DNA of 64,000 nucleotides from Elusimicrobia bacterium HGW-Elusimicrobia-3. Lineage in GTDB: Bacteria; Elusimicrobiota; Elusimicrobia; Elusimicrobiales; UBA9959. The number at the start of each line of letters is the position of its first letter. Within the stretch, counting starts at the first letter, position 1. The notes beneath the pieces are model-generated. The model did not search any database. It was not told the DNA's origin and saw only the letters and a list, made by a program, of their open reading frames with translations. Below are positions 3,322 to 54,906 of the stretch, piece by piece. The stretch covers positions 108,857 to 172,856 of the forward strand of contig PHAL01000002.1 in the NCBI GenBank assembly GCA_002840355.1, read 5' to 3'. Position numbers and translations under genes: made by a program.

Positions 3322-3340
3322 AGCGGCTCCTTGGGAGGGG

Positions 3341-4041: not shown

Positions 4042-4042
4042 C

Positions 4043-5841: not shown

Positions 5842-5874
5842 GATGTGGATTCTTACCGTACAGGGGAACTTTTT

Positions 5875-6627: not shown

Positions 6628-6666
6628 ATTGAAAGCGGGACTGTCGCGGGACACGCCTGCTCAAAT

Positions 6667-11952: not shown

Positions 11953-12072
11953 CGCCGCGCCCCCGGCAACAGGGCTCACCCCTGTCGCTGGCTCTGCTGC
12001 TTTTTCGGCCGGGGCTGGTAGTCGCGGCCTTCGTACAGGGGGGGATAGCAGCGGCCAGCGGCGGAGCACTAT

Positions 12073-12115
12073 TCGTTATTTCTTCGGGATTCAGGGGCGG
12101 GATACGCGTATAATG
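12073..12115 (+). promoter_or_regulatory. putative promoter/operator, motif copy C (TTCGTTATTTCTTCGGGATTCAG-N14-TATAAT)
   Basis: The 23-mer at 12073-12095 matches copy D at 22 of 23 positions. TATAAT at 12110-12115 lies 16 nt after GGGATTC. It is 35 nt upstream of the ATG at 12150. Confidence 0.6.
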
Positions 12116-12149
12116 CATATGGAGTCATAATATCGGACAGGCGGTAGGA

Positions 12150-13553: not shown

Positions 13554-13956
13554 AGCGCTCATAGTCGACGACGAACCGGCGATACAGCAATTGTTCCGGT
13601 ATGTATTGGAGGAAGCGGAGTTCGAGGTGCAGGTGGCCCAGAACGGTCTGGAAGGCTTATCGGCGCTGGCTTCCGGTCCGGTGGACATCATGCTGCTGGA
13701 CGTTTCCATGCCGGAGATGGACGGGCGGCAGTTCGTGACCGAGATTATGCGCCGTTCCGCGCGCGATAGCAGGCTGGCCGAGATCCCTTTTATAGTCATG
13801 ACCGGGGAAAACTTCATGGAAAGCGGGCTTAACCGGACCTTCTCCGCCGCGCCGGGATTCGTCTGTTTCCTGCCCAAGATGACCCCCCCGGAGACAGTGC
13901 TGGAAAAAATACGGGAAGCTATGTCCCCGCCGTCTTCCTCTGGCTCCGGCGGGTAG
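13546..13956 (+). CDS. single-domain response regulator
   Basis: ALIVDDEPA, IMLLDVSMPEMDG, FIVMTG. It overlaps the HK gene by 8 nt. Confidence 0.85.
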   Translation: MPKALIVDDEPAIQQLFRYVLEEAEFEVQVAQNGLEGLSALASGPVDIMLLDVSMPEMDGRQFVTEIMRRSARDSRLAEIPFIVMTGENFMESGLNRTFSAAPGFVCFLPKMTPPETVLEKIREAMSPPSSSGSGG

Positions 13957-20716: not shown

Positions 20717-20748
20717 TCTGAAAGGGGCCCCTTTGTGAAGAGATATTT

Positions 20749-22344: not shown

Positions 22345-22363
22345 CGCGACGCCTGATAGCAAT

Positions 22364-23587: not shown

Positions 23588-23610
23588 CTTCTTCGCCTGG
23601 GAATCCGCTT

Positions 23611-24834: not shown

Positions 24835-24889
24835 ACAGGGCTAAATGCGGTTTTAAAAGCCGGGTGGGCGGAACGGGAGAAACAGCGAT

Positions 24890-27800: not shown

Positions 27801-28558
27801 GTTCAAATGGTGTCTATGCCTTAGCGGTGAATGGTGATGAGATTTATGCCGGCGGCTTCTCTGGGGGCACCACAAGTTGGGAGGCTGTAACCTGGCAGGG
27901 CGCCCATAGCGGCGGTAATGAAGGCTTTGTTGTGGAGATACAGGACGGTGCCGCGCCTGTTATAAACTGGGGGCAATGGCTGGGCGGTGCGGGGTATGAT
28001 TATGTTCAGGCGCTTGCGGTGAACGGCGACGAGATTTATGCTGCTGGCTATTCCCCCGATGCTACCAGCTGGGAGACTATAGCCTGGCAGGGCGGGGAGC
28101 CTAACGGAAATCCTGATGGTTTTGTAGTGGAGATACAGGACGGCGCTACGCCTGTAATAAATTGGGGCCAATGGCTGGGTGGGACTGGTGTCGACTTTGT
28201 TTATGCCCTGGCGGTGAACGGCGATAAGATCTATGCCGGTGGCCACTCTGGGGACGCTACCAGTTGGGAGGCGATAACCTGGCAGGGCACCCATAGCGGC
28301 GGAAATGAAGGCTTTGTCGTGGAGATCCAAGACGGCGCCTCGCCTGTAATAAATTGGGGGCAATGGTTGGGTGGTACGGGGCATGAGTATTTTTATGCTT
28401 TGGCAGTGAATGGCGATGAAATCTATGCCGGCGGCTATTCTCCCAACAGTTCCGGTTGGGAGAATATAACCTGGCAGGGGACGCATAACGGCATATACGA
28501 AGCCTTCATTGTAAAGATCCTCCCGCCCGCCGACCCCACCTTCCCCTCCCACTGGTAG
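24890..28558 (+). CDS. secreted protein with 14 SBBP-like beta-propeller repeats
   Basis: Signal peptide MVLLNALLGLSFILPASA. From aa 314 there are 14 tandem ~64-aa units: INWGQWLGGTGNDYVYALAVNGDEIYAGGYS..ATSWETITWQGAHSG..EGFVVEIQDGATPV. Confidence 0.85.
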   Translation: MVLLNALLGLSFILPASAADGGAPAYTILYNSEAGGGVPAGLPAIMRLIRSKEKELGVSTSSSSRLELGDGAAAFTTAVEAAEDAGGGAVEDPGAPPHQLRPGPPREGGLAVRTLFDLNSDTVKKRSQVKGGGDNNTMVMTLDNKGRPYSRLALSSPEGDLQVYHRDTDYIIYTQAADGRGGISLKEWLYALKPGPGGRTAYSWSFESGSKNQAIELRREPAGGIGVYSRLVAVGIDAADRKRQASVMETVRKAFRSEVKIGDERLLARLQPVVYWTVAGERKTADFNVTGAGKLDLSLAEPPESYPLIIDPTLNWGQWLGANEAGEAHIKALAVDTATGEIYIGGHIGAPGIVSESITWQGTHSGLNEGFVVEIQDGATPVINWGQWLGGVQDDYVYALAVNGDEIYAGGHSIASSSGWETITWQGAFSGSNEGFVVEIQDGATPVINWGQWLGGTGNDAVRALAVNGDEIYVGGDSWSATSWEAITWQGTHSGGNEGFVVEIQDGATPTINWGQWLGGTGNDTVYALAVNVDEIYAGGNSYDATSWETITWQGAHSGNSEGFVVEIQDGATPVINWGQWLGGTGIDYVYALAVNGDEIYAGGYSGAATSWETITWQGAYSGSYESFVVEIQDGAAPAINWGQWLGGTGAEYLTALAVNGDEIYASGYTYVTTGWETITWQGAHSGSSEGFVVEIQDGATPTINWGQWLGGTGEDCVYALAVNGDQIYAPGETNLSDSWESITWQGAYNGGYEGFVVEIQDGATPAINWGQWLGGGIASAEIKALAVNGDEIYAGGYSGSSVAFESITWQGAHSGSSEGFVVEIQDGVTPVISWGQWLGGTGNDYVRALAVNGDEIYAGGDSQGATGWETITWQGAHSGDYEGFVVEIQDGVTPAINWGQWLGGTSTDRVYALAVNGDEIYAGGSSYSATGWETVTWQGAHSGNYEGFVVEIQDGVTPAINWGQWLGGTSSNGVYALAVNGDEIYAGGFSGGTTSWEAVTWQGAHSGGNEGFVVEIQDGAAPVINWGQWLGGAGYDYVQALAVNGDEIYAAGYSPDATSWETIAWQGGEPNGNPDGFVVEIQDGATPVINWGQWLGGTGVDFVYALAVNGDKIYAGGHSGDATSWEAITWQGTHSGGNEGFVVEIQDGASPVINWGQWLGGTGHEYFYALAVNGDEIYAGGYSPNSSGWENITWQGTHNGIYEAFIVKILPPADPTFPSHW
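25829..28555 (+). repeat. coding tandem repeat, 14 units of ~192 bp (64-69 aa)
   Basis: The nucleotide strings aactgggg(c/g)caatggctggg and ggctttgt(a/g/t)gtggagatacaggacgg recur every ~192 nt from 25829 to the end of the CDS. Confidence 0.9.
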
Positions 28559-28656: not shown

Positions 28657-29214
28657 ATGAGAAAAATTCTGGTGCTTATAATAGAGGACGATCCCGCCTG
28701 CTGTGAATTGTTAACGGCGGCCATGCTGGAGGCGGGCCGTGTGGTGCATGCTGCTACAACCCTTGCGGAGGGATATAAAGAGCTGGAAAAGGCCAGGCCG
28801 GACCTGATAGTGCTCGACAGGGGCCTGCCCGACGGGGACGGTGTGAAGTTCTGCCTGACTTTAAGAAAGGACTCCCGCTACAGAACTATCCCCATACTAA
28901 TGCTCACAGGCAGGGGCGAGGTGGAGGACAGGATACTTGGCCTGCGTCTGGGCGCGGACGATTATATGGTAAAGCCTTTCGATATGGAGGAGCTTCTGGC
29001 CAGGATGGACGGGCTTGTACGGCGCAATCAGCCGGAGTTGGCTGGCGGTTCCGGTAGGATGCAGTTCAAGGGTATAGTGATGGACCTTCGCGGCCGGCAG
29101 GTGCTGGCGAACGGGGAGGAAATTAAGGTGTCGCCTCGCGAGTATGAGCTGCTGCGTATATTCCTGGAAAATCGGCCTTATATTCGTTGCTTGAATGGGA
29201 GACGGGATTTATGA
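28657..29214 (+). CDS. OmpR-family response regulator with truncated winged-helix domain
   Basis: The receiver is complete (LIIEDDP, LIVLDRGLPDGDG, LMLTG, YMVKPF). The DNA-binding domain stops after ...VSPREYELLRIFLENRP, so the recognition helix and wing are absent. The stop overlaps the next ATG (ATGA at 29211-29214). Confidence 0.7.
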   Translation: MRKILVLIIEDDPACCELLTAAMLEAGRVVHAATTLAEGYKELEKARPDLIVLDRGLPDGDGVKFCLTLRKDSRYRTIPILMLTGRGEVEDRILGLRLGADDYMVKPFDMEELLARMDGLVRRNQPELAGGSGRMQFKGIVMDLRGRQVLANGEEIKVSPREYELLRIFLENRPYIRCLNGRRDL

Positions 29215-33920: not shown

Positions 33921-36707
33921 ATGACACAAAGAAGCAGAACGATCCTTTCAATTCTAGGGGTCACCAAACTCGACGACAAGTTTTCGATACTTATCGTCAC
34001 GTTCCTCGCCATCGTCCTGACCGGCCTTGCCGTGACCACCCAGACCGCGATACGCCTGAAGCGGCTCTCCCCGTCGGTGGATGCGGCCGGCAGGCAGCGA
34101 ATGCTGACCCAGCGGATGATGGGCCGGGCCTTTCTGCTGGCCTCCGGAGACCAGGCCGCGCTGTCCGATGGGCTTAAGAGCGCCGCTGAATTTGAGGAAG
34201 GCCTGGCCGCGCTGCGCGGCGGCGGCCGGGCGGCCGGCGTGGCGCTTGCTCCCGCACCGGGCAGAATAAGCCCCTACCTGGACCAACTAGAAGCCCGCTG
34301 GCGCGCCTTTAAGCCTGGCTATGAGTGGCTGATGGAGAATGCGGACAAAAGAGCTTCCCGGGAATTCAAGCTGCGGCTGGCCAGCCTTGAGGCGCAATCG
34401 GAACTGCTGCTTGCCGCCGCCGAGGAGGTTGCCCGCTACCTGCGCCAGCATGCCTCTAACCGCGTCCTCAATGTGGCTATCGGGCTCCTCCTGGGGCTGG
34501 CCGCCGCCGCCCTTCTCACTTTTGCGCTGGCTTTCCGTACGCTGCGGCGGGAACTCATTAAGCCGCTGGAAGAATTGATCTCGTCAGCGGAAAGGATATC
34601 GACGGGGGATTTCCACGCGGTTCCGGCGGAGATACGCGACGGCGAGCTGGGTACCCTGGCCCTGGCGCTGGAAAAGATATCCGATTCGGCGGTCAAGCGC
34701 ATTAACGCGGATAAGATCACCAATAGGCTGCTGAACCTGGCGGTGGAAACCGAGGACCTGCCCGGCCTTTTGAAAACAGCGCTGGAGACGGTGCTTTCGG
34801 CCGACTGGCTGTGCGCGGAGCCCAAAGGGGCGATATTTATCGCGGATAACGCGGCAAAAAAACTGACGCTGGCCGCGCAGTCCGGCCTGCCCGCGGCGCA
34901 AGGGGCGGCCTGCGCGGAGGTCGGTTTCGGACGCTGTCTCTGCGGCAGGGCCGCGGAGGCGGGGGAAGTTATTTACGCCGGCGGAGTCGAAGCCCGCCAT
35001 GAGAATGTGTACGAGGGGATCAAAGAGCACGGCCATTACTGCGTGCCCATGCTCTCCGGGAGCCGTCTTGTGGGCGTGCTGGCCCTCTACCTGGCGCCGG
35101 GTTACCTCTGCGACCTGGACGAGATAGCGCAGCTGAAAGGCATAGCGGCCCTGCTGGCGCAGATAATAGAGAAGAAACGGGGTCAGGCCGAGAACCGTAA
35201 AATGTCGGAGGCGCTGCGCCAGGCCGCGGAGGCCGTGTTTATAACAGGGACGGACGGGAAGATAACCTACGCCAACGAAGCATTCGAAAGGATGACCGGC
35301 TTTTCAGCGGCGGAGGCGCTCGGGAGGACGCCGAACCTGCTTAAGAGCGGCGAACATACCCCGGAGTATTATAGTTCAATGTGGGTCAGCATGCAGGAAG
35401 GCCTGCCCTGGACGGGCCGCATAGTAAATAAAAGGAAAGACGGCGGGCTCTTTACCGTGCAGGCCAACATTTTTCCGCTTAAAGATTCGTCGGGCAAGAC
35501 CACCGCCTATGTCACACTGCAGGAGGACGTTTCCGAACTGGTGGATACCGAAGAGCAGCTGCGCCAGTCCCAGAAGATGGAGGCGGTAGGCAGGCTGGCA
35601 GGCGGCGTGGCGCATGACTTCAATAATATCCTGATGGCCATAGACAGTTATGCGGGCTTTATCCGCCGGCGCCTTCCCGCGGCCAGCCAGGAAGCAGCCG
35701 ACGCCGGCGAGATAATCGTAGCCGTGCAGAAGGCTGCCGCGCTGACCCGGCAGCTGCTGGCTTTCAGCAGGAAGCAAAAGGCGCTTTTTCAGGCCCTTGA
35801 CCTGCGGCAGGCTGTGCTGGCCGGAGAAGAAATGCTCAAACGGCTGCTGGGCGAAACGGTAACGCTGAAGATCTCCGTCGCCGATGACGCCGGGAGGATA
35901 ATGGCCGATCCCGGCCAGATAGACCAGATACTGATGAACCTGCTGTTGAACGCCAAAGACGCCATGCCTGAGGGCGGGATCATAGAGATCCGCGTGGCCG
36001 GACACAAATCCATATTGCCGGTCCCCACCCCAGTGGGGACCATGCCGGCGGGGGAATATACCGTGCTTTCGGTTTACGATACCGGGTCAGGAATGGACAA
36101 AGAAACTCTTGGGCGGATATTCGACCCGTTCTTCACCACCAAGCCGAAGGGGAAAGGGACCGGACTGGGTTTATCCATAGTCTACGGCTCGGTGAAGCAT
36201 CACGGCGCATATATCACGGTAGCCAGCCGGCCGGGAAAAGGCTCCACCTTCACGCTCTATTTTCCGGTGTTCTCCGAACCGGCGGGGAAAGGCGAGCTGT
36301 CGCCGGAGCGGGCTCTCCGGACGGTCCCGGCGCAGGCGTCCGTGCTGCTGGCAGAAGACGATCCGATGGTGTTGGCCTCGGTGGAGCGGATGCTGCGGGA
36401 ACTGGGGGCGGAGGTGCGGGCTTTCCCGGAACCGGAAAAGCTGCTGGAATTCGCCGCCGGCTACGCCGGCGGCATAGACATCCTCCTGACCGATATCGTG
36501 ATGCCCGGAATGGACGGGTTCGCGCTGGCGGAGCGCCTGACGGCCCAAAAACCCGGGGTCAGGGTGATCTACATGTCCGGCTATACCGACCCGGACATTT
36601 TCAAGGGGCGTCTGGGGCGTCCCGGCATAGTGTTCCTGCAGAAGCCGTTCAACGAGGCACTGCTGGCGGAGACGCTTTCAAGGGTGATGGCCGCGGGAGC
36701 GGCATGA
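33921..36707 (+). CDS. hybrid sensor histidine kinase (PilJ/NarX-type N-terminal sensor, HAMP, GAF, PAS, HisKA, HATPase, receiver)
   Basis: [16 protein letters not shown] (PilJ-N/NIT-like), the HAMP region, a PAS segment ([22 protein letters not shown]), the H-box [12 protein letters not shown]-boxes, and a C-terminal receiver (VLLAEDDP...[13 protein letters not shown]...FLQKPF). Confidence 0.9.
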
Positions 36708-36756
36708 GCGCGGCTCGAAAAGGCGCGGTATTCACTTTGTCCGGGAGGAAGGGTTT

Positions 36757-38943
<2,187 letters not shown>

Positions 38944-39485: not shown

Positions 39486-40019
39486 ATGCGGGCCGCTATG
39501 AGCGGCTCTTTAAAAACCGATAGCCTGGCCGCGCCGCGGCCGGTGTCGTTTTTTTTGCGGCCCGCCCGGCCCGGGCGCGTTGTACTGGAATTCGTCCTGC
39601 CGGGGGCGCGGCGCCATGAAGGAGTTCCGCTTAATATCAAAAGTATGCCTCCTTGGCTTGACGCGCTCCTGGCGCGGGCCGAGGGCGCTATTCCGGGGGA
39701 CGGTTACAAAGTCTTCGGAGATCTTAGTATCTGCGTGGATTCCCGGCTGGTGAAGTTTGGCGGTAAAGTGATACCGGACCTGACGACCAGGGAAATAGAT
39801 CTGCTTGCCGCCCTGGCCGCCGCCGCCCCGGCCGTAATATCGAGGGAAAATATCGTTTCCAAAGTATGGAAAACCGTTGCGGTACCCAACCTTGTTCACA
39901 CCCATGTCTGTAACCTGCGCCGGAAACTGCCCGCGCGGCTGGCCGCGCGTATACAGGCCGTTCCTGGGAAAGGGTTCCGCTATTTCCATTCCCGTGCGGA
40001 AGTCCTGCCCTGGATATAA
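39486..40019 (+). CDS. OmpR-type winged-helix protein lacking a functional receiver (start uncertain; the ATG at 39645 is an alternative)
   Basis: The C-terminus (LTTREIDLLAALAAAAPAVISRENIVSKVWKTVAVPNLVHTHVCNLRRKLPARLAARIQAVPGKGFRYF) is paralogous to the 5875 product. Upstream there is only a vestigial alpha5-like PWLDALLAR. An in-frame TAA at 39459-39461 blocks any receiver N-terminal half. Confidence 0.7.
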   Translation: MRAAMSGSLKTDSLAAPRPVSFFLRPARPGRVVLEFVLPGARRHEGVPLNIKSMPPWLDALLARAEGAIPGDGYKVFGDLSICVDSRLVKFGGKVIPDLTTREIDLLAALAAAAPAVISRENIVSKVWKTVAVPNLVHTHVCNLRRKLPARLAARIQAVPGKGFRYFHSRAEVLPWI

Positions 40020-40067: not shown

Positions 40068-40110
40068 TTCGTCATTTCTTCGGGATTCAGCGCTCCCCCG
40101 GGTATAGACT
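40068..40110 (+). promoter_or_regulatory. putative promoter/operator, motif copy D (TTCGTCATTTCTTCGGGATTCAG-N14-TAGACT)
   Basis: The 23-mer at 40068-40090 matches copy C at 22 of 23 positions. A TAnnnT hexamer at 40105-40110 lies 16 nt after GGGATTC. It is 20 nt upstream of the ATG at 40130. Confidence 0.55.
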
Positions 40111-40129
40111 ATCTATAGGTGAACTACCT

Positions 40130-41848
40130 ATGAACAGAGGAGCCGGAAAAATCTTTGGCGCAGTCATGTCCTTTACGGGCATGCTGTGCCTTGCCGTTAC
40201 CGGCTATTGCGGTGACGCCGGCTCGGCCGGCGCGTCTTTCTTGAAATTTTCACCCAGCCCCAGGGGTACCGGTATGGGTGAGTCCCACGTTTCGATATCA
40301 GAAGACGCCTATTCCTCGTGGTGGAACCCGGCCGGCCTGGGCAGCGTGGAGGGGCCGGAGCTGGCCGCTACCTACAACGATTCCATGGAGGACGTCGCCA
40401 ACCAGTATCTTTCGGTGGCGTATCCTCTCCGTTATGGCTCCACGCTGGGGCTGAGCGTTACCCGCCTGAGCGTCTCTCCCTTTCAGGGTTACGACGCGCA
40501 GGGGGTAAAGAGCGGCAGGGTGGAATCCTCGGACATGTCGGTGGGGGCCGCTTACGGGCGGGCCATCATGAAGGACGAGATAGAACGTCCGGTGCTCAAC
40601 GTGGGGGCGGTCTTTAAGGTAATCAGCGAAGAACTGGCCGGGGTCTCCGCTTATACCGCGGCGCTGGATCTTGGCGCGGTCTATTATATTAGGCCGGACA
40701 ATTACTGGATGAGCAAGGCGCCGGCGCAAGAATTCCGCGTAGCCGCCACCTTGCGCAACCTGGGCCCCGGCTTAAAGTTCGACAAGGAGTCCTCGCCGCT
40801 GCCCTTGTCCGCCACACTGGGCGGGTCATGGCATTCGCATCCCGGCGGCAGCGCCAGCCTTATAATCAGCCTGGACCAGACCATCTCCAGGGACGAGAAC
40901 TATTATGCCGCGCTGGGCGCCGAGTACGTGGCCTTTCAACTGCTCTCGCTGCGGGCGGGCTATCGCACCGGGCAGGACATCGGTTCCGGCCTGCGCTTCG
41001 GCGTGGGTTTCCGCCTTTCCATCGCCGATATAGATTATTCCATGTCGCCGTTCGGGGAGCTGGGGGCTATGCACAAGCTGGGCGTCTCTATGCGGTTGGG
41101 AGCCACGGCGGCCAAATTGCCGCTGGCCGGCAAGACCCAGCGCGTAAAAGGAGCCCGGCTGATGGCTCCCAAGGACAAGATAGAAAAACTGGATCTTTTC
41201 GCCAATGATTTCCTGGAGCTGGCCCGCAAAGATCTGTCGGCCCGCCGCTATGTTTCTGCCCAGGCCAATATTCGCAAAGCCTTTAACCTGGATCCCAGGC
41301 TGAAGGAAGGCGACTGGGGCCGCCGTGAAAAGCGCCTTGGCGAAGTTATAGCGGGGCTTAAGCTGGCCGATATCCCGGCCAGGGAGAGAACGCTGGCCGC
41401 CAAGGGCGAGCAGTCCGGCATAGCGGCCGAGGCTATAGCCGCCTATATAGAGAGCAAGGACCTGAAGGCCTTCCTGCTCGCGCATGCCGCGCTGGGCACC
41501 GACCTGCGGGGCGACGCCGTCTTTGAGGAACTGCTCTACATATTGAGCGACCTGGTAAAGATACATGTGCGCCGCGACGAGATACTCCCGAGGCAGGCGC
41601 TGATCAAGGAAAAGCTCAGGAAGGCGGCCAGGGGTTTTTACATACGCCAGTTCGACACGGCCGCCAAGGAATGCGAGGAGGTTGCCGTAATAGACGAGGC
41701 GAATCCCGTGGCCTGGACCAGGCTGGGCTCGGCCTATTTCATGATGGGGGATAAGGATAAAGCCAAGGCCGCCTACCGCAAGGCCCTGGAAATAAACCCG
41801 TCCGACCCGGTTACCAGTGAATTCATGCGGGCCCAGGGCTGGGAGTAG
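40130..41848 (+). CDS. outer-membrane beta-barrel (PorV/UPF0164-like) fused to C-terminal TPR region
   Basis: Signal peptide. AGASFLKFSPSPRGTGMGESHVSISEDAYSSWWNPAGLG resembles the N-terminal signature of PorV/PorQ-type barrels (recalled from memory). Alternating beta-strand pattern. C-terminal TPR (AWTRLGSAYFMMGDKDKAKAAYRKALEINPSDP). Confidence 0.6.
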   Translation: MNRGAGKIFGAVMSFTGMLCLAVTGYCGDAGSAGASFLKFSPSPRGTGMGESHVSISEDAYSSWWNPAGLGSVEGPELAATYNDSMEDVANQYLSVAYPLRYGSTLGLSVTRLSVSPFQGYDAQGVKSGRVESSDMSVGAAYGRAIMKDEIERPVLNVGAVFKVISEELAGVSAYTAALDLGAVYYIRPDNYWMSKAPAQEFRVAATLRNLGPGLKFDKESSPLPLSATLGGSWHSHPGGSASLIISLDQTISRDENYYAALGAEYVAFQLLSLRAGYRTGQDIGSGLRFGVGFRLSIADIDYSMSPFGELGAMHKLGVSMRLGATAAKLPLAGKTQRVKGARLMAPKDKIEKLDLFANDFLELARKDLSARRYVSAQANIRKAFNLDPRLKEGDWGRREKRLGEVIAGLKLADIPARERTLAAKGEQSGIAAEAIAAYIESKDLKAFLLAHAALGTDLRGDAVFEELLYILSDLVKIHVRRDEILPRQALIKEKLRKAARGFYIRQFDTAAKECEEVAVIDEANPVAWTRLGSAYFMMGDKDKAKAAYRKALEINPSDPVTSEFMRAQGWE

Positions 41849-41852
41849 CGAC

Positions 41853-42794
41853 ATGGACATACTGCTGATCATGATCGTCCCTGTATCCCTGCTGCTGCTG
41901 GGCGCCGGCTTCCTGGTGGTAGCCCAGGTCTCCGGTTTCATGCAGTCGACTTTCTTCAATAGCCGGCAGAATTTTTCGAACATGATAATACAGCAGTACA
42001 TGGAACGCATTACCCTGGCCCAGGGGCAGCTCTACCAGCGCAAGCAGGAGCTGGAGGCTATGTCGGGCAAGCTGGCGTTGTCCAACCAGGAACTGGGCCG
42101 CCTTAACGACATGAAGTCCAAGTTCCTGTCCATGGTGGTGCACGACGTACGCACGCCGCTGGCCTCCATCAGGGGGTTCAGCGAACTGCTGATGAAGAAG
42201 AAGGTGGGGGAGAAAGAGACGGCCTACCTGAAGAATATCGTCAGTTCCACCGACCAGCTGGGCCGCCTGATAGCGGACCTGACCGACCTGGCCATGATAG
42301 AGGCCGGAAAACTGAAGATGGAAAAGGCGCTGTTCGAGTTCCCGGATATGGCGCGGGACATCCTGCCCGGCCTGTCCATCAACGCGCAGAAGAAAGGCGT
42401 GGACCTGGTAGTTCATGATTTCCCCGACGGGGTACTAGTGAACGGCGACAAGTTCCGCCTGTCGCAGGTATTCATGAACCTGGTCAACAACGCTATAAAG
42501 TTCACCCCTGCGGGGAAAAAGGTGGAGGTGTCCTTCAGGCGCGAAGGCAAGTACGTGGACACGCTGGTCAAAGATTCAGGGATAGGAATACACCCGAGCG
42601 AGACCAGGAAGATCTTCGAGAAGTTCTACCAGGCCAAGTACCAGAAGGACGCGGCGCTGCGCAAGCAGGGCTGGGGTCTGGGGCTTTCGATAGCGCAGGA
42701 GGTGGTGCGGGCGCATAAGGGGGATATCGGCGCCCAGAGCCCCGGGCTGGGCAAGGGCTCCACCTTCTGGTTCAAGATCCCGGTAGGCACATAA
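41853..42794 (+). CDS. minimal membrane histidine kinase (one TM, no sensor domain)
   Basis: MDILLIMIVPVSLLLLGAGFLVVAQV, a coiled-coil linker, the H-box KSKFLSMVVHDVRTPLASI, an N-box (NLVNNAIKFT) and G-boxes (DSGIGI, GWGLGLSIA). Confidence 0.85.
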   Translation: MDILLIMIVPVSLLLLGAGFLVVAQVSGFMQSTFFNSRQNFSNMIIQQYMERITLAQGQLYQRKQELEAMSGKLALSNQELGRLNDMKSKFLSMVVHDVRTPLASIRGFSELLMKKKVGEKETAYLKNIVSSTDQLGRLIADLTDLAMIEAGKLKMEKALFEFPDMARDILPGLSINAQKKGVDLVVHDFPDGVLVNGDKFRLSQVFMNLVNNAIKFTPAGKKVEVSFRREGKYVDTLVKDSGIGIHPSETRKIFEKFYQAKYQKDAALRKQGWGLGLSIAQEVVRAHKGDIGAQSPGLGKGSTFWFKIPVGT

Positions 42795-42809
42795 GGATTG
42801 GAGGCTACT

Positions 42810-43547
42810 ATGGACATTACAACGATAATAGGTTTTCTGGGCGCCGTCGGCCTGATCTCCGCCGGAGTGGCCGGAGAGCAGATCTCGGCCTCGCTGATAA
42901 ACATGCACGGCGTGGTGGTGGTGCTGGGCGGCACGCTGGTGGCCACGCTGATAAACACTCCGCTGAAATTCATCCGGGGCGCAATATCCGAGCTCGGCCT
43001 GATCTTCAGGGAGAACGACGAGGTGGCGCCCGACAGGATCATCCCGGTGATAGTCGCGCTCGCCGAACAGTCCCGCATGCGCGGGCTGTCCGCGCTCAAG
43101 GAGGCCGATCCCGCGGTGGCCAAGGGTTTTCTGAGCAGGGCCGCCACCGCCGCGCTGGAATATAACGATACCAAGTTCGTTAGGGAAGTCCTCGAGCAGG
43201 AGATAAACCAGGGCGTGGACGACATGAACGAAGTGGCCAACGTCTACCGCACGATGGGCGTGATGGCCCCGATGTTCGGCCTGCTGGGCACGCTGATAGG
43301 CATCATCGGCGTGCTCAAGGACCTGGCCAACCCCGAGAGCGTGGGCCCTGCCATGGCCGTGGCCATCACCTCGGCCTTCTACGGGATCTTCTTCGCCAAT
43401 ATGATCTGCGTTCCTATAGCCGGCAAAATGCGCGCCAAGGTGTGGCTGGACGTGCGCATGAAATCCATGATACTGGAAGGGGTGCTGGAGATCATGAAGG
43501 GCAGCATGCCGCTGGTGATCGAGCGCAGGCTGCAGTCGTATCTTTAG
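42810..43547 (+). CDS. motA: MotA/PomA-type stator proton-channel protein
   Basis: GGAGG lies 6 nt before the ATG at 42810. Four TM helices. MGVMAPMFGLLGTLIGIIGVL and AVAITSAFYGIFFANMICVPIAGKM carry the two conserved Pro residues of the MotA/ExbB/TolQ channel family. The ~245-aa length is PomA-like. Confidence 0.8.
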   Translation: MDITTIIGFLGAVGLISAGVAGEQISASLINMHGVVVVLGGTLVATLINTPLKFIRGAISELGLIFRENDEVAPDRIIPVIVALAEQSRMRGLSALKEADPAVAKGFLSRAATAALEYNDTKFVREVLEQEINQGVDDMNEVANVYRTMGVMAPMFGLLGTLIGIIGVLKDLANPESVGPAMAVAITSAFYGIFFANMICVPIAGKMRAKVWLDVRMKSMILEGVLEIMKGSMPLVIERRLQSYL

Positions 43548-43569
43548 TCCTGGAGCGGAGGTTGTGGTT

Positions 43570-45102
43570 ATGGAAACTAAAATGATGAAAAAAATCAGCC
43601 GCGGGGTACTCTGCTCCGCGCTGGCCACCCTTGCCCTGCTCCCGGTACTGGCCGTGCGCTGCCGGGCCCAGTCGCTGCCCTTCGAGGACAAGGCCAAATA
43701 CGAGAAGGCCCTGGAGCAGAAGGTGGACGATGTGCTGGTCCGCCTGCTGGGGCCGAACCAGGCCAAGGTGGTGGTAGAGGCAACTATGGACTTCAGCCGC
43801 ACCGAGAAACTGGACGTCACTTCGGCGGCGCCGTCGGACAAGGAGAACCCGTTCAAATGGCAGGGGGCCGGCGGCGAGGCGCAATCGGGCGACTACCTGA
43901 TGCCCGGCTTCCTTTCCTTCTCCGCGGGCTCCAACGAGAATAAATCCTATAACCGGCAGATGCTGTACCCGTCGGCTTTCATCAAGAAGATGACGGTCAG
44001 CATTATCCTCAACCGCGACCTGCCCGATCTGGACGCCGAGAACATCCGGCGGGTGGTCTCCGAAATGATGCAGCTCGACGTTAAACGGGGGGACCAGCTC
44101 TCCGTCATAAAGGCTCCGTTCGCCCCGCTGTGGCGCACCATCTGGTACACCCCCGAGGCCATCAGCATGGTGCTCAAGTACGTGATGCTGGCGCTGATGG
44201 GGATAATAGGCATGATAGTGGTGGCCGTCGGCTTTCTCAAACTTGCCGGCGCCATGAGCACCATGGCGAAGGTGCAGCAGAGCCACCAGATAACCATGGA
44301 CCTGGGCAAGGGCGCCGGGCCGGCCGGCCTGGACGGGCCGCCGCCCGCCCTGGGCGGCCCGGCCGAAAGGCCGCAGGCCGCGGCCGGCGAGCCGGGGATG
44401 GGCGGGGGGGACGACAGAGTGGTATTCAGCGTGCGGCCCGACCAGGTGCCGTTCCTGGTGAACATGATGGCCAGCGAGGACCCGGCCAACGTGGCCCTGG
44501 TGGCCGGCCACCTGCCGGCGGAGGTGCGCACGGACTTCCTGCGCAAGCTGCCTCCGGCCTTCTCCTCCGACGTGCTGATCCATATGGCCAAGATCCGTTT
44601 CGTCGAGCCGGAGATCATAGCCACGCTCAAGGACGAGCTGGAGCGCCGGCTGAGCGGGGCGGTGGGCGGCCTGGACGGGGCGCTGGAAGCCATAGAGAGC
44701 ATGACCCTGAAGGCCAGGATAGAGATGCTGGAGGAACTGGGCAGGAAGCATCCGGAACTGGCCGCCGAAGTGCGCCGCCGCGTGCTGCTGCCCGACGATA
44801 TCGGCCGGTTCAGCGAGCGGGAACTGTCGCTGCTGGCCGGCGCGCTGAAGGCCGAGGAATGGGCTACGGCTCTTTTCAGACTGTCGGACTCCGTAAAGGA
44901 GAAACTGCGCGCCCAGATGGCCGACAAGACCTGGGCCATGATAGAGCAGAGCATGAGCTACGGCAGCCCCTCGCACGAAAAGGCGGAGGAAGCGCTCGAA
45001 CGCGTGATGGCCGCCGCGGCCGCCTTCATAAAAGAGGGAAAGATCGTTAACCCGGCCGATTCTCAGCAACCGCTGCTCGAGAGCGGCCAGGCCGAGGCCT
45101 AG
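43570..45102 (+). CDS. FliF-like (single ring-building region + TM) / FliG-like (middle + C-terminal domains) fusion protein
   Basis: Signal/TM segment. LEQKVDDVLVRLLGPNQAKVVVEATMDFSRTEKLDV and IKKMTVSIILNRD...VSEMMQLDVKRGDQLSVIKAPFAP, followed by a TM helix, parallel the FliF C-terminal periplasmic part. A Gly/Pro linker follows. EDPANVALVAGHLPAEVR... and RRRVLLPDDIGRFSERELSLLAGALKAEEWATALFRLSDSVKEKLRAQM...EEALERVMAAAAAFIKEGKI parallel FliG-M and FliG-C. Start ambiguous (43564 GTG, 43570, 43582). Confidence 0.65.
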   Translation: METKMMKKISRGVLCSALATLALLPVLAVRCRAQSLPFEDKAKYEKALEQKVDDVLVRLLGPNQAKVVVEATMDFSRTEKLDVTSAAPSDKENPFKWQGAGGEAQSGDYLMPGFLSFSAGSNENKSYNRQMLYPSAFIKKMTVSIILNRDLPDLDAENIRRVVSEMMQLDVKRGDQLSVIKAPFAPLWRTIWYTPEAISMVLKYVMLALMGIIGMIVVAVGFLKLAGAMSTMAKVQQSHQITMDLGKGAGPAGLDGPPPALGGPAERPQAAAGEPGMGGGDDRVVFSVRPDQVPFLVNMMASEDPANVALVAGHLPAEVRTDFLRKLPPAFSSDVLIHMAKIRFVEPEIIATLKDELERRLSGAVGGLDGALEAIESMTLKARIEMLEELGRKHPELAAEVRRRVLLPDDIGRFSERELSLLAGALKAEEWATALFRLSDSVKEKLRAQMADKTWAMIEQSMSYGSPSHEKAEEALERVMAAAAAFIKEGKIVNPADSQQPLLESGQAEA

Positions 45103-45110
45103 GAGGGGAT

Positions 45111-46616
45111 ATGGACAACCAGAAATATAAGAAGGACTCGGTGTTCTCTTCGGTATTCCCGCAGCAGGAACCTGCCAGCCCGCCCGCGCCGGCCGCGGCG
45201 CCGGTCCATAAGCCCGAGGTTTCCGAAGGGCAGGTCTCGGCCTTGAACAAGAAGATAGAAATGCTGGAGCGCAATATAGTCGGCGAACTGCAGCGGACGC
45301 TGGCGGAACGCGCGTCCGCGCCGCCTGCTCCGCCCCCGCCTCCGTCGCAGGCCATCCCGGCCGTCATTTCCAAAATAACCGAGATGGAAAACCGCTTCAA
45401 GGAATTCCAGGAGAAATTCCTGATCGGGGCGGCGCAGATGAAGAATATAGAGGAGTCCAAGATCAGCGCGCGCCGGGAGATAGAGGAACTGCTCAAGGTG
45501 GTGCGCGAGCAGCAGAAGTATTCGGAACTCGACAGGCAGATGCATGACCAGCTGGAAAAAGCCTGGGCCCGCGTGGAGCAGATGGAGGGCCGTCTTGTTG
45601 AAGCTTACGCCGCAGCCGCCCAAAAAACCGCACCCGCCGCTCCGCCAGTCGCTCCTCCCGCCCCGCAGGTCTCCGCGGACGAAATAGCCGCGGCCGTTCT
45701 GAAGGCCGTAGACGGGGCTATCGGTGAAAGAATAAAGGCGGTCGACGCGAAGCTCGACGCCAGGCTGCGGCTCTTGGAGGACATGGTACGGAAGTCCCAG
45801 GCGGGCGCCGGGGAGTCCCTGGAGGCCTGCCGCCAGTTGGGGGCCGGCTTTGCCTCACACTCGTCGCGGGTGGACTCGGCCCTGGCCTCCATTTCTGAGG
45901 AAGTCGGCCGTTCGGCTATCAGCGCCTTCTCCGGTAAGGAACGCCTGGAGGATATGGTCACGGATATGAAGACGGAGTTGAAGGGTTATATAAAAGAGCA
46001 GGCGGACCGGTCAGTTTCCGCCTTTGTCGGTCATGCGGACGCTTCCGCGCTTGACGCCCGTGAGCGGCTCGACGCGCTGGCGCGGATGATGGTGACCCAT
46101 GTGGATTCCCTGACCGCTGCCCAGGCGGCCGTCTCTGCGCGGTTGGGGGATATGGCCGCGACCGTTGATAACCACGCGGCGGCGCAGCAGCGGACCGTTG
46201 TCTCCAGCGCCGAAGATGCGGAGCGTTCGCTGCGCGCCGGACTGGACTCGCTGGCGGCCCGGGTGAGCGCGGAGAACGACGGGCAGTTGCTGAAACTCAG
46301 GGAAGTCTTTGATCTTTCCGCCTCCGGTCAGGCCGCGCTTTCCGGTGCAGCCGCCGATATTGCCGGGATAGAGTCCCGGCTTGAAGCTTTGCGGACCGTT
46401 CTGGGCCGCGTCCTCGCCGACCTGCGCGCCGTGAACCTGGAGGGGATCTTAGGCGTCTCGGGGGCCGTTATCCGCAAGACGGTGGAAGGTCTTCCCGGGC
46501 TTTGCGAAGAATTGCGGCGTAACGAGACGCTGATGAGGGAAAAACGCGCCGTGATAGAGGCCGGCGCGTTGCGGCTGCGGGCCGGAGGCGGAGGCGACTC
46601 AAATGAGCGGCCCTGA
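45111..46616 (+). CDS. Pro/Ala-rich coiled-coil protein (501 aa), no TM
   Basis: AGGAGG lies before the ATG. Two PAPP-type stretches separate long heptad-like helices (ALNKKIEMLERNIVGELQRTL..., ENRFKEFQEKFLIGAAQMKNIEESKISARREIEELLKVVREQQ...). Confidence 0.65.
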   Translation: MDNQKYKKDSVFSSVFPQQEPASPPAPAAAPVHKPEVSEGQVSALNKKIEMLERNIVGELQRTLAERASAPPAPPPPPSQAIPAVISKITEMENRFKEFQEKFLIGAAQMKNIEESKISARREIEELLKVVREQQKYSELDRQMHDQLEKAWARVEQMEGRLVEAYAAAAQKTAPAAPPVAPPAPQVSADEIAAAVLKAVDGAIGERIKAVDAKLDARLRLLEDMVRKSQAGAGESLEACRQLGAGFASHSSRVDSALASISEEVGRSAISAFSGKERLEDMVTDMKTELKGYIKEQADRSVSAFVGHADASALDARERLDALARMMVTHVDSLTAAQAAVSARLGDMAATVDNHAAAQQRTVVSSAEDAERSLRAGLDSLAARVSAENDGQLLKLREVFDLSASGQAALSGAAADIAGIESRLEALRTVLGRVLADLRAVNLEGILGVSGAVIRKTVEGLPGLCEELRRNETLMREKRAVIEAGALRLRAGGGGDSNERP

Positions 46617-47445
46617 TTCACTGTTCTCCTGCATACAGCCGGCTGAAGCGCCACGGGGCGATGCCTGCGCATCTAAACCTGCGCCGCCGCCACCGCCTCC
46701 GGCGCCGACAGCCGCCCAGGCGAGGAATAGCGATCTGGAAGCAAGGCTGAATAAAAGCGAGGAAAGACGGCTGGCGGCCGAAACCAGGCTGGCGGAACTG
46801 GAAAAAGGCTTTGCGGCCTTTAAAAATGAATTGGCGCGGACCAGGGAGTCCCTTGCCGCGGGTCCCGGCCCGGCGGCTATCCAGGAGTTGAAACAGGAAT
46901 TATCGGTTCTCTCGCGCAGACTCCTGGCCGCGGAGGCGGCGGTCTCCCGCGACTCTTTGCGCGATGGGCAGGCCAGCGCCCTGGAGGCGGCGGACAGGCG
47001 GCTGAAAGAAGCCGAAGCGCGCATAGGCGAGGAAATAGAGCGCCGCTTTGCCGGTTTGGATACGGCGATTTTTGAAATCGCGCGCAAAGCGCTGACGGCT
47101 AAAGAGGCCGCGGCGGGGAATACGCGCAGGCTGGAAAGGCTGGAGGAGCGGACCGCGCGTTTGACATACATAGAGAAGCGGCTGAACAGCAGCGAGAATA
47201 AGTTCGAAAGGATCTGCGAGTGCGAAGCGCTGGCGGAATCGCTAAAGGTAAGCGTGGAGGAAGTGGAACGGACGCTGGCCGAAATGCTGCACAAGGAGGC
47301 CTCCCTCGCGGCGGAGAACCGCAAGACGGCCTCCGAACTGCAATCCCTGTCCGCGCAGGTGGGACAGATCAGCGCCCTTTTTAATCACTTCCGGTCCGAA
47401 CTTTCCTTTCTGATTCCCGGGAGAAAGGACGTGGCCGGGGGGTAA
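46603..47445 (+). CDS. Pro-rich N-terminus + coiled-coil protein (280 aa)
   Basis: It overlaps the upstream gene by 14 nt. KPAPPPPPPAPT is followed by continuous coiled coil (DLEARLNKSEERRLAAETRLAELEKGFAAFKNELARTRESL...). Confidence 0.65.
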   Translation: MSGPDSLFSCIQPAEAPRGDACASKPAPPPPPPAPTAAQARNSDLEARLNKSEERRLAAETRLAELEKGFAAFKNELARTRESLAAGPGPAAIQELKQELSVLSRRLLAAEAAVSRDSLRDGQASALEAADRRLKEAEARIGEEIERRFAGLDTAIFEIARKALTAKEAAAGNTRRLERLEERTARLTYIEKRLNSSENKFERICECEALAESLKVSVEEVERTLAEMLHKEASLAAENRKTASELQSLSAQVGQISALFNHFRSELSFLIPGRKDVAGG

Positions 47446-47456
47446 GGTATTACTTT

Positions 47457-48137
47457 ATGGCGATATACAAACAAAGGCGCGACGAGGTGGAGAACCAGCT
47501 CAACAAGGGGGCGCTGTGGGCGGTTACCTACGGCGACCTGATGAGCTACCTGATGATCTTCTTCCTGGTCCTGTTCTCGTTCTCTGTCTCTAAAAACGAC
47601 AAGACCAAGAACAGGAAATACGAGGAGTCGCTAGGGAACATCCAGAAGGCTTTCGGCGGTACGGCAGACTCCCCGCGGTTGGAGCGGGCGATAGCCAAGG
47701 AGAACGAGGAGGCGACGGCCAAGAAACTGCAGGAGTCCGTGGCGTCGAGCCTGGTGCAGGTGGAATCCAGCGAAAAGAGGCTCAAACTGGTACTCACCGA
47801 GGGGGTGCTGTTCGACTCCGGCCGGGCCGACCTGAGAGAAAGGGCCCGGGAGGTACTGAAACCCATAGTGGACGAGTTGAAGAAACTGCCCAATGAAGTG
47901 GTAGTGGAGGGCCATACAGACAATGTGCCCATAAAGAGCGGCCGGTATTCCACCAACTGGGAACTTTCTATGGCCAGGGCCTACAGCGTGATAAGTTACA
48001 TGGAGAGCCTGGGGATGGACAAGCGCAAGCTCGCGGGCATCGGCTATGGCGAGAATCGCCCTGTCGCGGCCAATATCGACTACGAGGGCCGCGCCAGGAA
48101 CCGCCGTATAGAAATATCCCTGATGAAAACTGATTGA
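47457..48137 (+). CDS. motB: MotB-type stator protein with OmpA-like peptidoglycan-binding domain
   Basis: ALWAVTYGDLMSYLMIFFLVLFSF (TM helix with the conserved Asp). C-terminal VVVEGHTDNVPI...SNWELSMARAYSV...GIGYGENRPVA...NRRIEISL. Confidence 0.85.
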   Translation: MAIYKQRRDEVENQLNKGALWAVTYGDLMSYLMIFFLVLFSFSVSKNDKTKNRKYEESLGNIQKAFGGTADSPRLERAIAKENEEATAKKLQESVASSLVQVESSEKRLKLVLTEGVLFDSGRADLRERAREVLKPIVDELKKLPNEVVVEGHTDNVPIKSGRYSTNWELSMARAYSVISYMESLGMDKRKLAGIGYGENRPVAANIDYEGRARNRRIEISLMKTD

Positions 48138-48320
48138 CGGCTCAGCGTTACAGTTTTCTCGAGCGGCCCTCCCAGTCCATGAAGTGGATTCCGTCCAGCG
48201 CCGCGATAAGCAGCCCGCTGCGCGTGGCCAGCAGGTTGCTGCGCCAGTATTTCTCCTCTACGCTTTGCGGAAGTTTCCAGTAGGAGTAGGGGCCGTGCGG
48301 GTTCGCGCCTGTCAAGGCCC

Positions 48321-48361
48321 AAAAGAAAAGAGCCCGGCGCAGGCCGGGCCCTTTTCTTTTT
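48321..48361. terminator. bidirectional rho-independent terminator
   Basis: AAAAGAAAAGA-GCCCGGC-GCAG-GCCGGGC-CCTTTTCTTTTT lies between the convergent motB operon and ssnA. T-tracts are present on both strands. Confidence 0.75.
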
Positions 48362-48373
48362 ACCGGAAGCGGT

Positions 48374-52335: not shown

Positions 52336-54906
<2,571 letters not shown>

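Follow-up and report, generated by a model that had tools for sequence, protein, structure and literature searches.

This analysis concerns a stretch of 64,000 nucleotides from the genome of Elusimicrobia bacterium HGW-Elusimicrobia-3, hereafter the window, and in particular an operon at positions 40130-48137 of its forward strand in which the stator genes motA and motB stand together with a gene that fuses parts of the flagellar rotor proteins FliF and FliG. The genome (GCA_002840355.1) originates from groundwater, belongs to the order Elusimicrobiales and the family UBA9959, and is 2.88 Mb in size and 95% complete (supplementary table). The operon comprises seven tightly packed open reading frames (ORFs), all on the forward strand: g1 (40130-41848) encodes a PorV/PorQ-family barrel with tetratricopeptide repeats (TPR), g2 (41853-42794) a membrane-anchored histidine kinase (HK) of 313 aa, g3 (42810-43547) a MotA of 245 aa, g4 (43570-45102) the FliF-FliG rotor fusion of 510 aa, g5 (45111-46616) an all-helical coiled-coil protein, g6 (46603-47445) an Ala/Pro-rich helical protein and g7 (47457-48137) MotB. 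The successive intergenic distances are +4, +15, +22, +8, -14 and +11 nt. The gene starts are those of the public gene calls on contigs with an identical g5 and the same layout; the g5 product is 100% identical to CVU79_01275 of HGW-Elusimicrobia-3. The operon is followed by a bidirectional intrinsic terminator (48320-48362) made of an A-tract, the GC hairpin GCCCGGCGCAGGCCGGGC and a T-tract. Terminator-like matches are found on both strands at 48331-48349, i.e. the same element shuts the operon and a convergent amidohydrolase gene, and convergent metabolic genes lie beyond it.

A preliminary description of this DNA, made from the letters alone, had read the locus as seven packed forward-strand genes with gaps of -14 to +22 nt, preceded by a promoter-like motif and closed by a bidirectional terminator. 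It had named the products as a PorV-like outer-membrane (OM) barrel with TPR, a sensor-less membrane HK, a MotA-type channel, a FliF-like ring-building region fused to the FliG middle (M) and C-terminal (C) domains, two Pro/Ala-rich coiled-coil proteins and a MotB with an OmpA-like peptidoglycan (PG) anchor. The packing is matched by the ORF list and by the public starts, the terminator scores on both strands, and all of the domain assignments were verified by profile, PDB-sequence or fold searches, the results of which are given protein by protein below.

The rotor protein g4 is described with residue numbers that refer to its 512-aa ORF. Pfam profiles detect YscJ_FliF_C (1.5e-9), FliG_M (1.7e-11) and FliG_C (1.1e-11), and a profile of 16 homologues matches FliG (1lkv, 2e-33) and FliF (9yh6, 1.6e-6) in the PDB. 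In the AlphaFold2 (AF2) model the chain begins with a signal-like or transmembrane (TM) helix, followed by a periplasmic domain, a TM helix, a disordered linker of ~50 residues and the FliG M and C domains. Pfam, the PDB profile and the model combined with Foldseek thus concur on the fusion.

The only periplasmic domain of g4 is an RBM3-like ring-building domain of ~150 aa (residues 39-187; 43678-44124, forward strand). Its modelled secondary structure is alpha-beta-beta-[insert]-beta-beta-alpha-beta, and Foldseek aligns it with the RBM3/collar region of FliF (8z4g, 6sd1, 7cg7 and 8zdt; E 3e-6 to 1e-5, TM-score ~0.58), i.e. with the S-ring of Vibrio and Salmonella FliF; SpoIIIAG is a further, weak match. 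The collar insert is short (~45 aa, residues 86-128) and carries two invariant motifs, F97-K-W and Y111-x-x-P114-G-F-P, the second of which, as [L]PG[FIV]P, is retained even in very distant rotor homologues. In one homologue of 706 aa (P0121) the periplasmic loop contains 5 or 6 tandem copies of a unit with 'LPGFPAEEDE', and such an amplification of LPGFP is what a peptide ligand would show. The TM helix and the juxtamembrane segment (44152-44289, forward strand) form a helix spanning residues 197-242 in the AF2 model, and the juxtamembrane sequence GFLKLAGAM.TMAK.QQSHQITMD is near-invariant; nowhere else in the family are invariant columns so densely packed.

The cytoplasmic half (44437-45048, forward strand) was delimited by alignment to Thermotoga maritima FliG. 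It consists of the FliG middle domain (residues 292-366), an invariant Gly368-Gly369 hinge and the FliG C-terminal domain (370-495), and its AF2 model matches FliG MC with 4e-12 in Foldseek. Neither Pfam nor the alignment nor the model gave a match to FliG_N; the corresponding residues 243-290 are disordered and variable. Likewise, RBM1 and RBM2 were not found with the model and Foldseek, and the periplasmic domain resembles RBM3/collar instead. In FliF, RBM1 and RBM2 house the export gate. The covalent fusion replaces the contact of FliG_N with the C-terminal peptide of FliF and, as it lacks RBM1/RBM2 and FliG_N, g4 cannot act as a normal MS-ring/FliG pair. Judged from alignment and model, what g4 keeps is the ring-forming and the torque-receiving parts of the rotor.

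The stator proteins are of the flagellar type. In MotA, whose residue numbers count from position 42798 and not from the public start at 42810, Pfam detects MotA_ExbB (2e-22), and full-length matches over residues 5-249 were obtained with Bacillus subtilis MotA (6ysl, 2e-34) and PomA (8bri, 7e-31). The NCBIfam models of PomA/MotA flagellar stators match with 1e-44 to 1e-46 and TolQ with 1e-5, and g3 scores below the equivalog cut-offs of all these models. By its alignments g3 is a flagellar-type (PomA/short-MotA-like) A subunit with four TM helices and a full cytoplasmic torque domain. Both channel prolines are retained (158 in MAPMFG and 206 in CVPIAG). Arg93, which is aligned with residue 90 of B. 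subtilis MotA, is invariant in 41 orthologues; in the same set Lys or Arg101 sits at the residue-98 position, i.e. the charge is reversed, and position 102 is always Asp or Glu. MotB (g7) carries MotB_plug (2.4e-12) and OmpA (8e-19) in Pfam, matches the NCBIfam families MotD, MotB and MotS with 1e-36 to 3e-48, and aligns with Clostridium sporogenes MotB (6ysf, 4e-31) so that Asp27 (YGD27LMS) falls on the TM channel Asp. Of 34 orthologues, at least 90% have this residue. Among the traits that are diagnostic of the flagellar clade (FIT), as opposed to generic motors of the MotAB family, are a plug and an OmpA-type anchor (PMC12505986).

The surfaces by which stator and rotor should meet were then compared, with Salmonella FliG numbering checked against 8umd_B and combined with the T. 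maritima alignment. On the FliG torque helix R281 corresponds to K455 of g4, R287 to E461, D288 to Q462 and D289 to Ser or Thr at 463; K264 is replaced by Phe, and R297 is Arg in most homologues and His in the window. K455, E461 and Q462 are invariant or nearly so among the rotor homologues. In E. coli and Salmonella the contact pairs are MotA R90-FliG D289 and MotA E98-FliG R281, according to PMC7564593. In the clade of the window MotA carries K101-[D/E]102 where E98 would be and FliG carries E461-Q-S in place of R287-D288-D289, and a distant system (L051) has the canonical MotA 'R...E' together with FliG 'K-E-E'. The comparison comprises three lineages, in one of which (L053) motA is possibly damaged and its contig is of low coverage, and the positions are invariant inside the window clade. 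The complementary re-wiring of charges on both partners is suggestive, not statistical, as an indication from aligned residues that MotA and the rotor still touch. The FliM-binding EHPQ motif has become E305-D-P-A-N309, with R345 retained. As the motif is altered and no FliM or FliN is present, something else must occupy that face of FliG.

Candidates for such a partner are the helical proteins. The g5 gene sits directly after the rotor gene in all loci, and its product has a conserved N-terminal K-K-D-S-[IVL]-F-S, a Pro-rich linker, a core helix (109-166) and a conserved C-terminal LGVSG...R motif; no signal peptide and no TM segment were predicted. It belongs to no Pfam or NCBIfam family, the family is found in Elusimicrobia alone, and its members are always annotated as 'hypothetical'. 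The AF2 model is all helical (pLDDT 71.5); Foldseek with this model returned nothing at E <1, and the profile search of the helical proteins against the PDB gave apolipoprotein-like helical matches only. The g6 gene is optional, being present in about a quarter of the relatives, and its product has an N-terminal D-S-[ILV]-F-S peptide and only weak, SMC-like coiled-coil matches in Pfam and NCBIfam. BLASTP found no similarity between g5 and g6 outside the N-terminal peptide. One or two large helical ORFs lie between the fusion and MotB in every locus, and in three distant ones (L051, L056 and L053) the protein downstream of the fusion has a g5-like N-terminus and core, which makes the coiled-coil protein a core partner. 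We infer from the sequences that the N-terminal peptide of g5 and g6 is a docking motif; its partner may be the rotor or a CheY-like regulator, by analogy with the N-terminus of FliM, which binds CheY.

The first two genes would connect this motor to the outer membrane and to signal transduction. g1 matches the NCBIfam model NF033709 PorV_fam with 147 bits (cut-off 90; 7e-43), does not reach the cut-offs of the equivalog models for PorV and PorQ, and matches Flavobacterium johnsoniae PorV (6h3i_F) with 1.6e-5 in the PDB search; Pfam adds a Toluene_X match (0.0055). The barrel spans residues ~30-325 and the C-terminal half, ~240 aa, is helical, with TPR at 493-560 (TPR_1, 3e-11). The protein is presumably an outer-membrane barrel with a periplasmic TPR tail, as far as the sequence tells. 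Members of the PorV/PorQ family bind and shuttle the cargo of the type IX secretion system (T9SS). The kinase g2 consists of one N-terminal TM helix, a coiled-coil linker, HisKA (5e-18, with the phospho-acceptor His97 in the motif HDVRTPL) and HATPase_c (2e-24); no sensor domain was found with Pfam or on inspection of the sequence. It is the best-conserved protein of the operon.

The conservation of the whole arrangement is an argument that it works as a unit. The search with the rotor protein gave 167 homologues; among the 120 listed, all share the architecture and every one with a named source is from Elusimicrobia. With one genome scanned per GTDB species, 47 non-duplicate loci were collected, all in Elusimicrobia metagenome-assembled genomes (MAGs). 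By tblastn and ORF analysis, the same gene order, i.e. PorV-TPR, HK, MotA, fusion, coiled-coil protein(s) and MotB, is present in ~45 other Elusimicrobia species, and the co-occurrence of the fusion with MotAB and the coiled-coil ORFs, which the preliminary description had put forward as a check, is thereby established. In loci with enough flanking sequence MotA is present in 40/42, HK in 34/35, PorV-TPR in 29/30 and MotB in 30/31. The median identities to the window are 74% for HK, 70% for MotB, 67% for MotA, 62% for PorV-TPR, 54% for the fusion and 44% for g5. That this order persists in ~45 species excludes a relic in decay and speaks for a single functional module.

The variation around this theme is also informative. 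An exhaustive hidden Markov model (HMM) search of 1.84 billion representatives gave 133 clusters at E up to 1e-30. In another clade the kinase and the rotor are joined in one chain of ~820-850 aa (P0125, P0132, P0135, P0138, P0139 and P0147), and in L053 (569-3037) such a kinase-rotor fusion comes first, then a short helical protein, a 77-aa ORF, MotA and MotB. Rotor proteins fused to a C-terminal TPR are also among the clusters, and a protein search with one of them (P0177) gave named homologues that are all Elusimicrobiota, including Endomicrobiia. Both kinds of chain, kinase-rotor and rotor-TPR, count as Rosetta-stone fusions in favour of the explanation preferred below. In L033 and others a receiver gene is inserted between g1 and g2. 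Several single loci deserve mention on their own account. In L003 (6034-11211, the same as L027, from groundwater) the order is HK, rotor A, a 291-aa protein with a faint FapA match, MotA, rotor B, coiled coil and MotB, and in GWA2_61_42 the system occurs twice, as separate copies (L010 and L031).

The promoter region of the operon lies at 40068-40112 on the forward strand. Upstream of g1 there is a 21-nt box, TTCGTCATTTCTTCGGGATTC (40068-40088), followed after a spacer of 14 nt by the -10-like element TATAGACTAT (40103-40112) and by the ribosome-binding site (RBS) AGGTGA (40117-40122). The box consists of two direct repeats of ~11 nt, i.e. it has a pho-box-like layout. The alignment shows it conserved upstream of g1 between species with proteins of only 60-80% identity; 31 loci have an exact copy of the 13-mer core upstream of g1, and in 18 loci the bipartite pattern is exact. 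Ahead of g1 a generic sigma-70 scan gave no promoter, and it is this cross-species conservation that confirms the promoter-like motif noted earlier at 40068 as real. The pattern TTCGTNATTTCTTCGGGATTC occurs three times in the window (6585-6605, 12072-12092 and 40068-40088) and in none of 100 shuffles. The box lies 14-16 nt upstream of TATAAT or TATAGA, and the copies at 6585 and 12072 precede a perfect TATAAT by 16 nt. It looks like a candidate binding site of an OmpR/PhoB-type activator, and its positions look as if they define a small regulon consisting of the motor operon, a PAS-HK/response regulator (RR) pair and a protein with a T9SS sorting domain.

The two other members of this putative regulon are on the forward strand. 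The PAS-HK/RR module (12072-13956) has its box at 12072-12092, TATAAT at 12109-12114, a PAS kinase at 12150-13553 and a CheY-like RR at 13546-13956. In L004, L005, L006, L009, L011 and L016 the orthologues of this pair immediately precede the motor operon, and in L014 the RR orthologue stands there alone; in the present genome the pair has, by this comparison, moved 26 kb from the operon. The second is the sorting-domain protein (6585-7773), with the box at 6585-6605, TATAAT at 6622-6627 and a 368-aa ORF at 6667-7773. A candidate regulator of the box is the product of 39486-40019 (forward strand), an orphan OmpR-type winged-helix protein (Trans_reg_C, 1.8e-14) without a receiver domain. Its orthologue is found upstream of g1 in L017 (86%) and L010 (51%), and it is a tentative member of the system. 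Single-domain receivers adjoin the operon in L016, L033 and others, and their orthologues in the window are at 13546-13956 and 11070-11465.

More generally, the window is dense in two-component genes, with at least 7 single-domain CheY-like receivers, 2 OmpR-type regulators, 2 large hybrid kinases (PilJ/HAMP/GAF/PAS; two receiver domains) and a further PAS kinase; these genes are at 2935-4860 (-), 11070-11465, 13546-13956, 28657-29214, 4862-5578 (-), 5818-6564 and 33921-38943. On the reverse strand, 4 kb downstream of the operon, 52336-54906 encodes an 856-aa eukaryotic-type Ser/Thr kinase with a TPR tail, which is also seen in L054. In L018 (389-2077) a divergent PorV-like gene with 30% identity to g1 has the promoter core TTTCTTCGGGATT, as does the operon 6 kb downstream.

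The surroundings of more distant relatives suggest what the system may act upon. Here the PorV-TPR protein is a full-length homologue of g1 at 27% identity (3e-39), and directly upstream of the PorV-TPR/fusion pair there are giant ORFs of 14,454 aa (L051, 1-7823), 18,879 aa (L056, 1-7838) and 7,235 aa (L057, 1-6772), all in Endomicrobia-type Elusimicrobiota and all with their last ~100 residues resembling a sorting domain. The C-terminus of the L057 giant scores 24.1 bits with TIGR04183 (cut-off 23), and those of L051 and L056 match the domains at the C-termini of PorU, PorZ or M6-like proteins. The pair is also preceded, in L052, L057 and L058, by a small protein that is almost nothing but a sorting domain, and the one in L052 scores 29.6 bits. 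Helical/TPR proteins of very large size lie downstream in the sister loci, as do a CHU_C protein and a LysM-bearing barrel of PorV/PorP-SprF-like type; the CHU_C protein of L056 scores 29.1 bits with the type B model TIGR04131 (cut-off 35) and 23.8 with the type A model TIGR04183 (cut-off 23). FlbD-MotA-OmpA-MotB follow downstream in L051. This arrangement resembles, by analogy, the SprB/SprF/PorV/GldLM set of gliding Bacteroidota with flagellar parts as the motor. In the window itself, the ORF at 6667-7773 matches TIGR04183 Por_Secre_tail with 24.7 bits (cut-off 23) as well as FlgD_ig, and its product is a possible co-regulated cargo. An analogy to GldLM-type surface or secretion motors had been drawn in the preliminary description, and the family of g1 and the giant and sorting-domain neighbours in the sister lineages support it. 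We also note a row of large proteins without known families at 15710-28558 on the forward strand (1668 aa with an Lcl_C domain, 531, 407, 407 and 1222 aa), which are possibly located at the cell surface; in L003, too, Lcl_C proteins stand ahead of the motor operon.

The genes that would make this locus part of a flagellum were not found in its vicinity. Pfam and NCBIfam scans covered 47 window ORFs, all but one of at least 200 aa, and the ORFs in the gaps, many of which start like response-regulator receiver domains, were inspected by eye. Among the 47 scanned ORFs there was no flagellar gene for export, rod, hook, filament or switch, in agreement with the earlier reading of the 64 kb, nor was any flagellar gene found in the flanks (up to 10 kb per side) of 50-odd related loci, including the 7 for which Pfam results were tabulated. 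A weak FlgD_ig match and a FlgO/CsgG-like lipoprotein in the window are not core flagellar genes. The latter is a 429-aa protein (60598-61887) with a CsgG/FlgO/LpoB-like lipoprotein domain and a C-terminal outer-membrane beta-barrel.

A preprint that included this genome in its survey (10.1101/2022.07.08.499144) reports a full flagellar set in few Elusimicrobiota and states that most free-living members keep motAB and fliG without flagellar structural genes, their role being 'unclear'. The paper on groundwater Elusimicrobia contains no statement on motility. In the literature we found no description of the operon, of an RBM3-FliG_MC fusion, of its PorV, kinase and coiled-coil partners or of the promoter box; on FliG/MotAB systems in non-flagellates, the searches brought up only the brief mention in that preprint and the paper on the chlamydial fusion. 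In other words, it is already known, having been noticed in passing, that motAB and fliG occur in the phylum, and the operon, the fusion, the partners and the box appear to be new. The fusion architecture, the local context and the statement of the preprint together support the earlier proposal of a rotor and stator without a flagellum.

We are therefore confident that the Elusimicrobiota possess a conserved, non-flagellar FliF/FliG-MotAB module. The fuller explanation, to which we give a probability of roughly 55%, is that of a flagellum-derived, ion-driven rotor-stator that energises an outer-membrane or surface-protein process under two-component control. The mechanism could be as follows. 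The fusion protein would oligomerise via RBM3 into an inner-membrane ring that displays FliG_C, and PG-anchored MotA5B2 units would push FliG_C by the flow of H+ or Na+, so that the ring is turned or strained. The collar loop with its LPGFP motif might, speculatively, couple the ring to the TPR tail of the PorV-like barrel, by which the ion-motive force would reach the outer membrane. The output there would be to secrete, anchor or move surface proteins whose C-terminal sorting domains are T9SS-like. The coiled-coil protein(s) would dock with their N-terminal peptide on the cytoplasmic face, at the site of FliM/FliN, the kinase and CheY-like regulators would control or read out the motor, and transcription would start from the pho-box-like promoter common to the PAS kinase/RR pair and the sorting-domain protein. 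We hold with moderate confidence that the specific output is a PorV-like/sorting-domain surface-protein process, and there is a substantial chance that the machine as a whole is a new kind of system. The most far-reaching version, i.e. a new rotary machine in which a ring of S-ring and FliG parts is turned by MotAB and drives a PorV/TPR module that handles giant sorting-domain adhesins, with no type III export gate or axial structure and with its own kinase/CheY-like control, is put forward tentatively and is more doubtful than the general explanation.

A number of observations weigh against the explanation that we prefer. The ring, the rotation and the output are deduced from sequences and models, and the AF2 monomer model of g4 is of moderate quality (pLDDT 66) with the collar loop unmodelled. 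The canonical acidic pair D288/D289 and K264 of FliG are lost in g4; given this loss, the altered EHPQ motif and the lack of FliM/FliN, torque of the flagellar kind is not guaranteed. The TPR of the distant rotor fusions are cytoplasmic, which complicates the idea that the TPR tail binds the collar. The link to T9SS is circumstantial: the sorting-domain scores are at, just above or below the cut-offs, the PorP/SprF match is below its cut-off, and in the clade of the window the cargo genes are not adjacent to the operon. GldLM/PorLM, GldK/N, SprA/Sov and PorU were not found among the scanned window ORFs, with no genome-wide search made for them, and the absence of flagellar genes covers the window and the flanks of the relatives, not the rest of the 2.9-Mb genome. 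Finally, the kinase is the most conserved component and is sometimes fused to the rotor, which fits a signalling device equally well.

This last point leads to the main rival, which we consider unlikely but better placed than the others, namely that the FliF-FliG ring and MotAB form an envelope sensor of mechanical load or ion-motive force that is read by the kinase, the output being the phosphorylation of CheY-like or OmpR-type regulators and not mechanical work on the outer membrane. Flagellar stators are known load sensors. The kinase without a sensor domain, its median identity of 74% and its presence in 34/35 loci, the kinase-rotor fusions in several 50%-identity clusters, the PAS-HK with one or two single-domain receivers that flank the operon in many species and the richness of the window in receiver genes would all be expected of such a device. 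It leaves unexplained, however, the strictly co-conserved PorV-TPR barrel and coiled-coil protein as well as the giant sorting-domain neighbours, and at least two of the loci with such neighbours (L051 and L057) have no kinase call within 10 kb of the fusion. Moreover, a regulated motor needs a kinase just as well.

A lower probability is assigned to a non-rotary energiser or tether of the Tol-Pal/TonB kind, in which MotAB would pull on monomers or small oligomers of the fusion for OM attachment or for uptake through the barrel. TPR proteins are common in Tol-Pal systems (YbgF/CpoB), PorV belongs to the FadL-like class of barrels (hence the Toluene_X match of 0.0055), MotB has a PG anchor, and the acidic pair of the torque helix is lost. 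Yet the periplasmic domain is specifically that of the ring-forming FliF RBM3/collar, the stator is flagellar with a plug and a complete PomA-like cytoplasmic domain and not of the ExbB/TolQ type (TolQ 1e-5 vs PomA 2e-46), and the FliG_C fold and the hinge are retained.

Even less likely is that we are dealing with the rotor/stator locus of an ordinary flagellum whose other genes are elsewhere in the genome. The homology to FliG, FliF, MotA and MotB is genuine, the preprint reports complete flagellar sets in a few Elusimicrobiota genomes, and the scan for flagellar genes covered the window and the flanks and not the whole genome. Nevertheless, the fusion is without RBM1/RBM2 and FliG_N and has an altered FliM-binding motif, no flagellar gene is seen in the 64 kb or in the flanks of the relatives, the constant partners (PorV-TPR, HK and coiled coil) are not flagellar, and most free-living members are reported, in the same source, to have motAB and fliG without structural genes. 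Last, a Zorya-like anti-phage defence, which uses MotAB-like proteins with long coiled coils, was rejected, and a decaying relic of a lost flagellum is very improbable: MotB does match ZorB models (1e-24), but it matches flagellar MotB families far better (3e-48), ZorB-like similarity is confined to MotB, there is no match to ZorA, ZorC or ZorD and none of MotA to any PADLOC model, and across the phylum the order of the genes, the promoter box and the catalytic residues are conserved, which cannot be reconciled with decay and is not typical of defence islands with their patchy distribution.

If the preferred explanation of a flagellum-derived rotor-stator is true, the torque-generating core is able to work as an autonomous module, which bears on the modular assembly of the flagellar motor; it would be the first natural flagellar torque generator apart from the export apparatus, and scenarios in which rotor and stator arose first or separately would become testable. 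A system of ~5 proteins would also be a simpler subject for the study of stator-rotor coupling, with a naturally charge-swapped interface and with natural FliF-FliG and kinase-rotor fusions. For the phylum, which is poorly known and mostly uncultured, it would mean an unrecognised surface-protein or secretion/motility system that could explain a possible movement of non-flagellated, even magnetotactic, Elusimicrobiota. Annotation would be corrected as well, for genes labelled 'flagellar motor switch protein FliG' or 'hypothetical' inflate the motility predictions for the phylum.

The comparison with known systems begins with the flagellar motor's core. The two share the PomA/short-MotA stator with its channel Asp, plug and OmpA anchor, the RBM3/collar, and FliG M and C with the hinge and a charged torque helix. 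Here, however, FliF and FliG are one polypeptide without RBM1/RBM2 and FliG_N, the charges are shifted, FliM/FliN, export, rod, hook and filament genes are not nearby, and the constant partners are a PorV-like barrel, a histidine kinase and a coiled coil. To our knowledge, all characterised uses of FliG and of flagellar-type MotAB are in flagella, and all characterised non-flagellar 5:2 motors (Ton, Tol, Gld, Agl and Zor) work with other partners.

Of these motors, ExbBD-TonB, TolQR-TolA, AglRQS-Glt of Myxococcus and ZorAB are similar in that a channel of the MotAB family energises a non-flagellar envelope process. They differ in having TonB/TolA/GltG-type or ZorA-tail partners and ExbB/TolQ-type A subunits, and none has a FliG-type rotor or a FliF-type ring, whereas the stator described here has a full-length PomA-like A subunit as well as the plug and OmpA-type anchor that are FIT traits (PMC12505986). 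The T9SS/gliding machinery (GldLM/PorLM) is similar in that an inner-membrane ion-driven motor is genetically tied to a barrel of the PorV/PorQ family, and the sister loci add giant and small sorting-domain proteins, a CHU_C protein and a PorP/SprF-like barrel to the likeness. The motor here, in contrast, is MotAB with FliF-FliG, and the PorV-like barrel has a TPR tail. T9SS is established in the FCB group, and the Elusimicrobiota are outside it.

Covalent fusions of FliF and FliG are known from two other sources. Those engineered in Salmonella and Vibrio (8z4d/8z4g) form rings, and the periplasmic domain of g4 superposes on their S-ring; they are, however, laboratory constructs of full-length FliF and FliG within a complete flagellum. 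The Chlamydiaceae, on the other hand, have a natural, shortened FliF-FliG fusion in non-flagellated bacteria (Bergeron 2016, PMC4768692). That protein has ~330 aa, with RBM2, one further RBM-like domain and the FliG middle domain only, and was discussed in connection with the injectisome and not linked to MotAB (PMC4768692). The present fusion, in contrast, has 510 aa, an RBM3/collar domain and FliG M and C, and is operonic with MotAB. The chlamydial FliF-FliG fusion is the closest described object.

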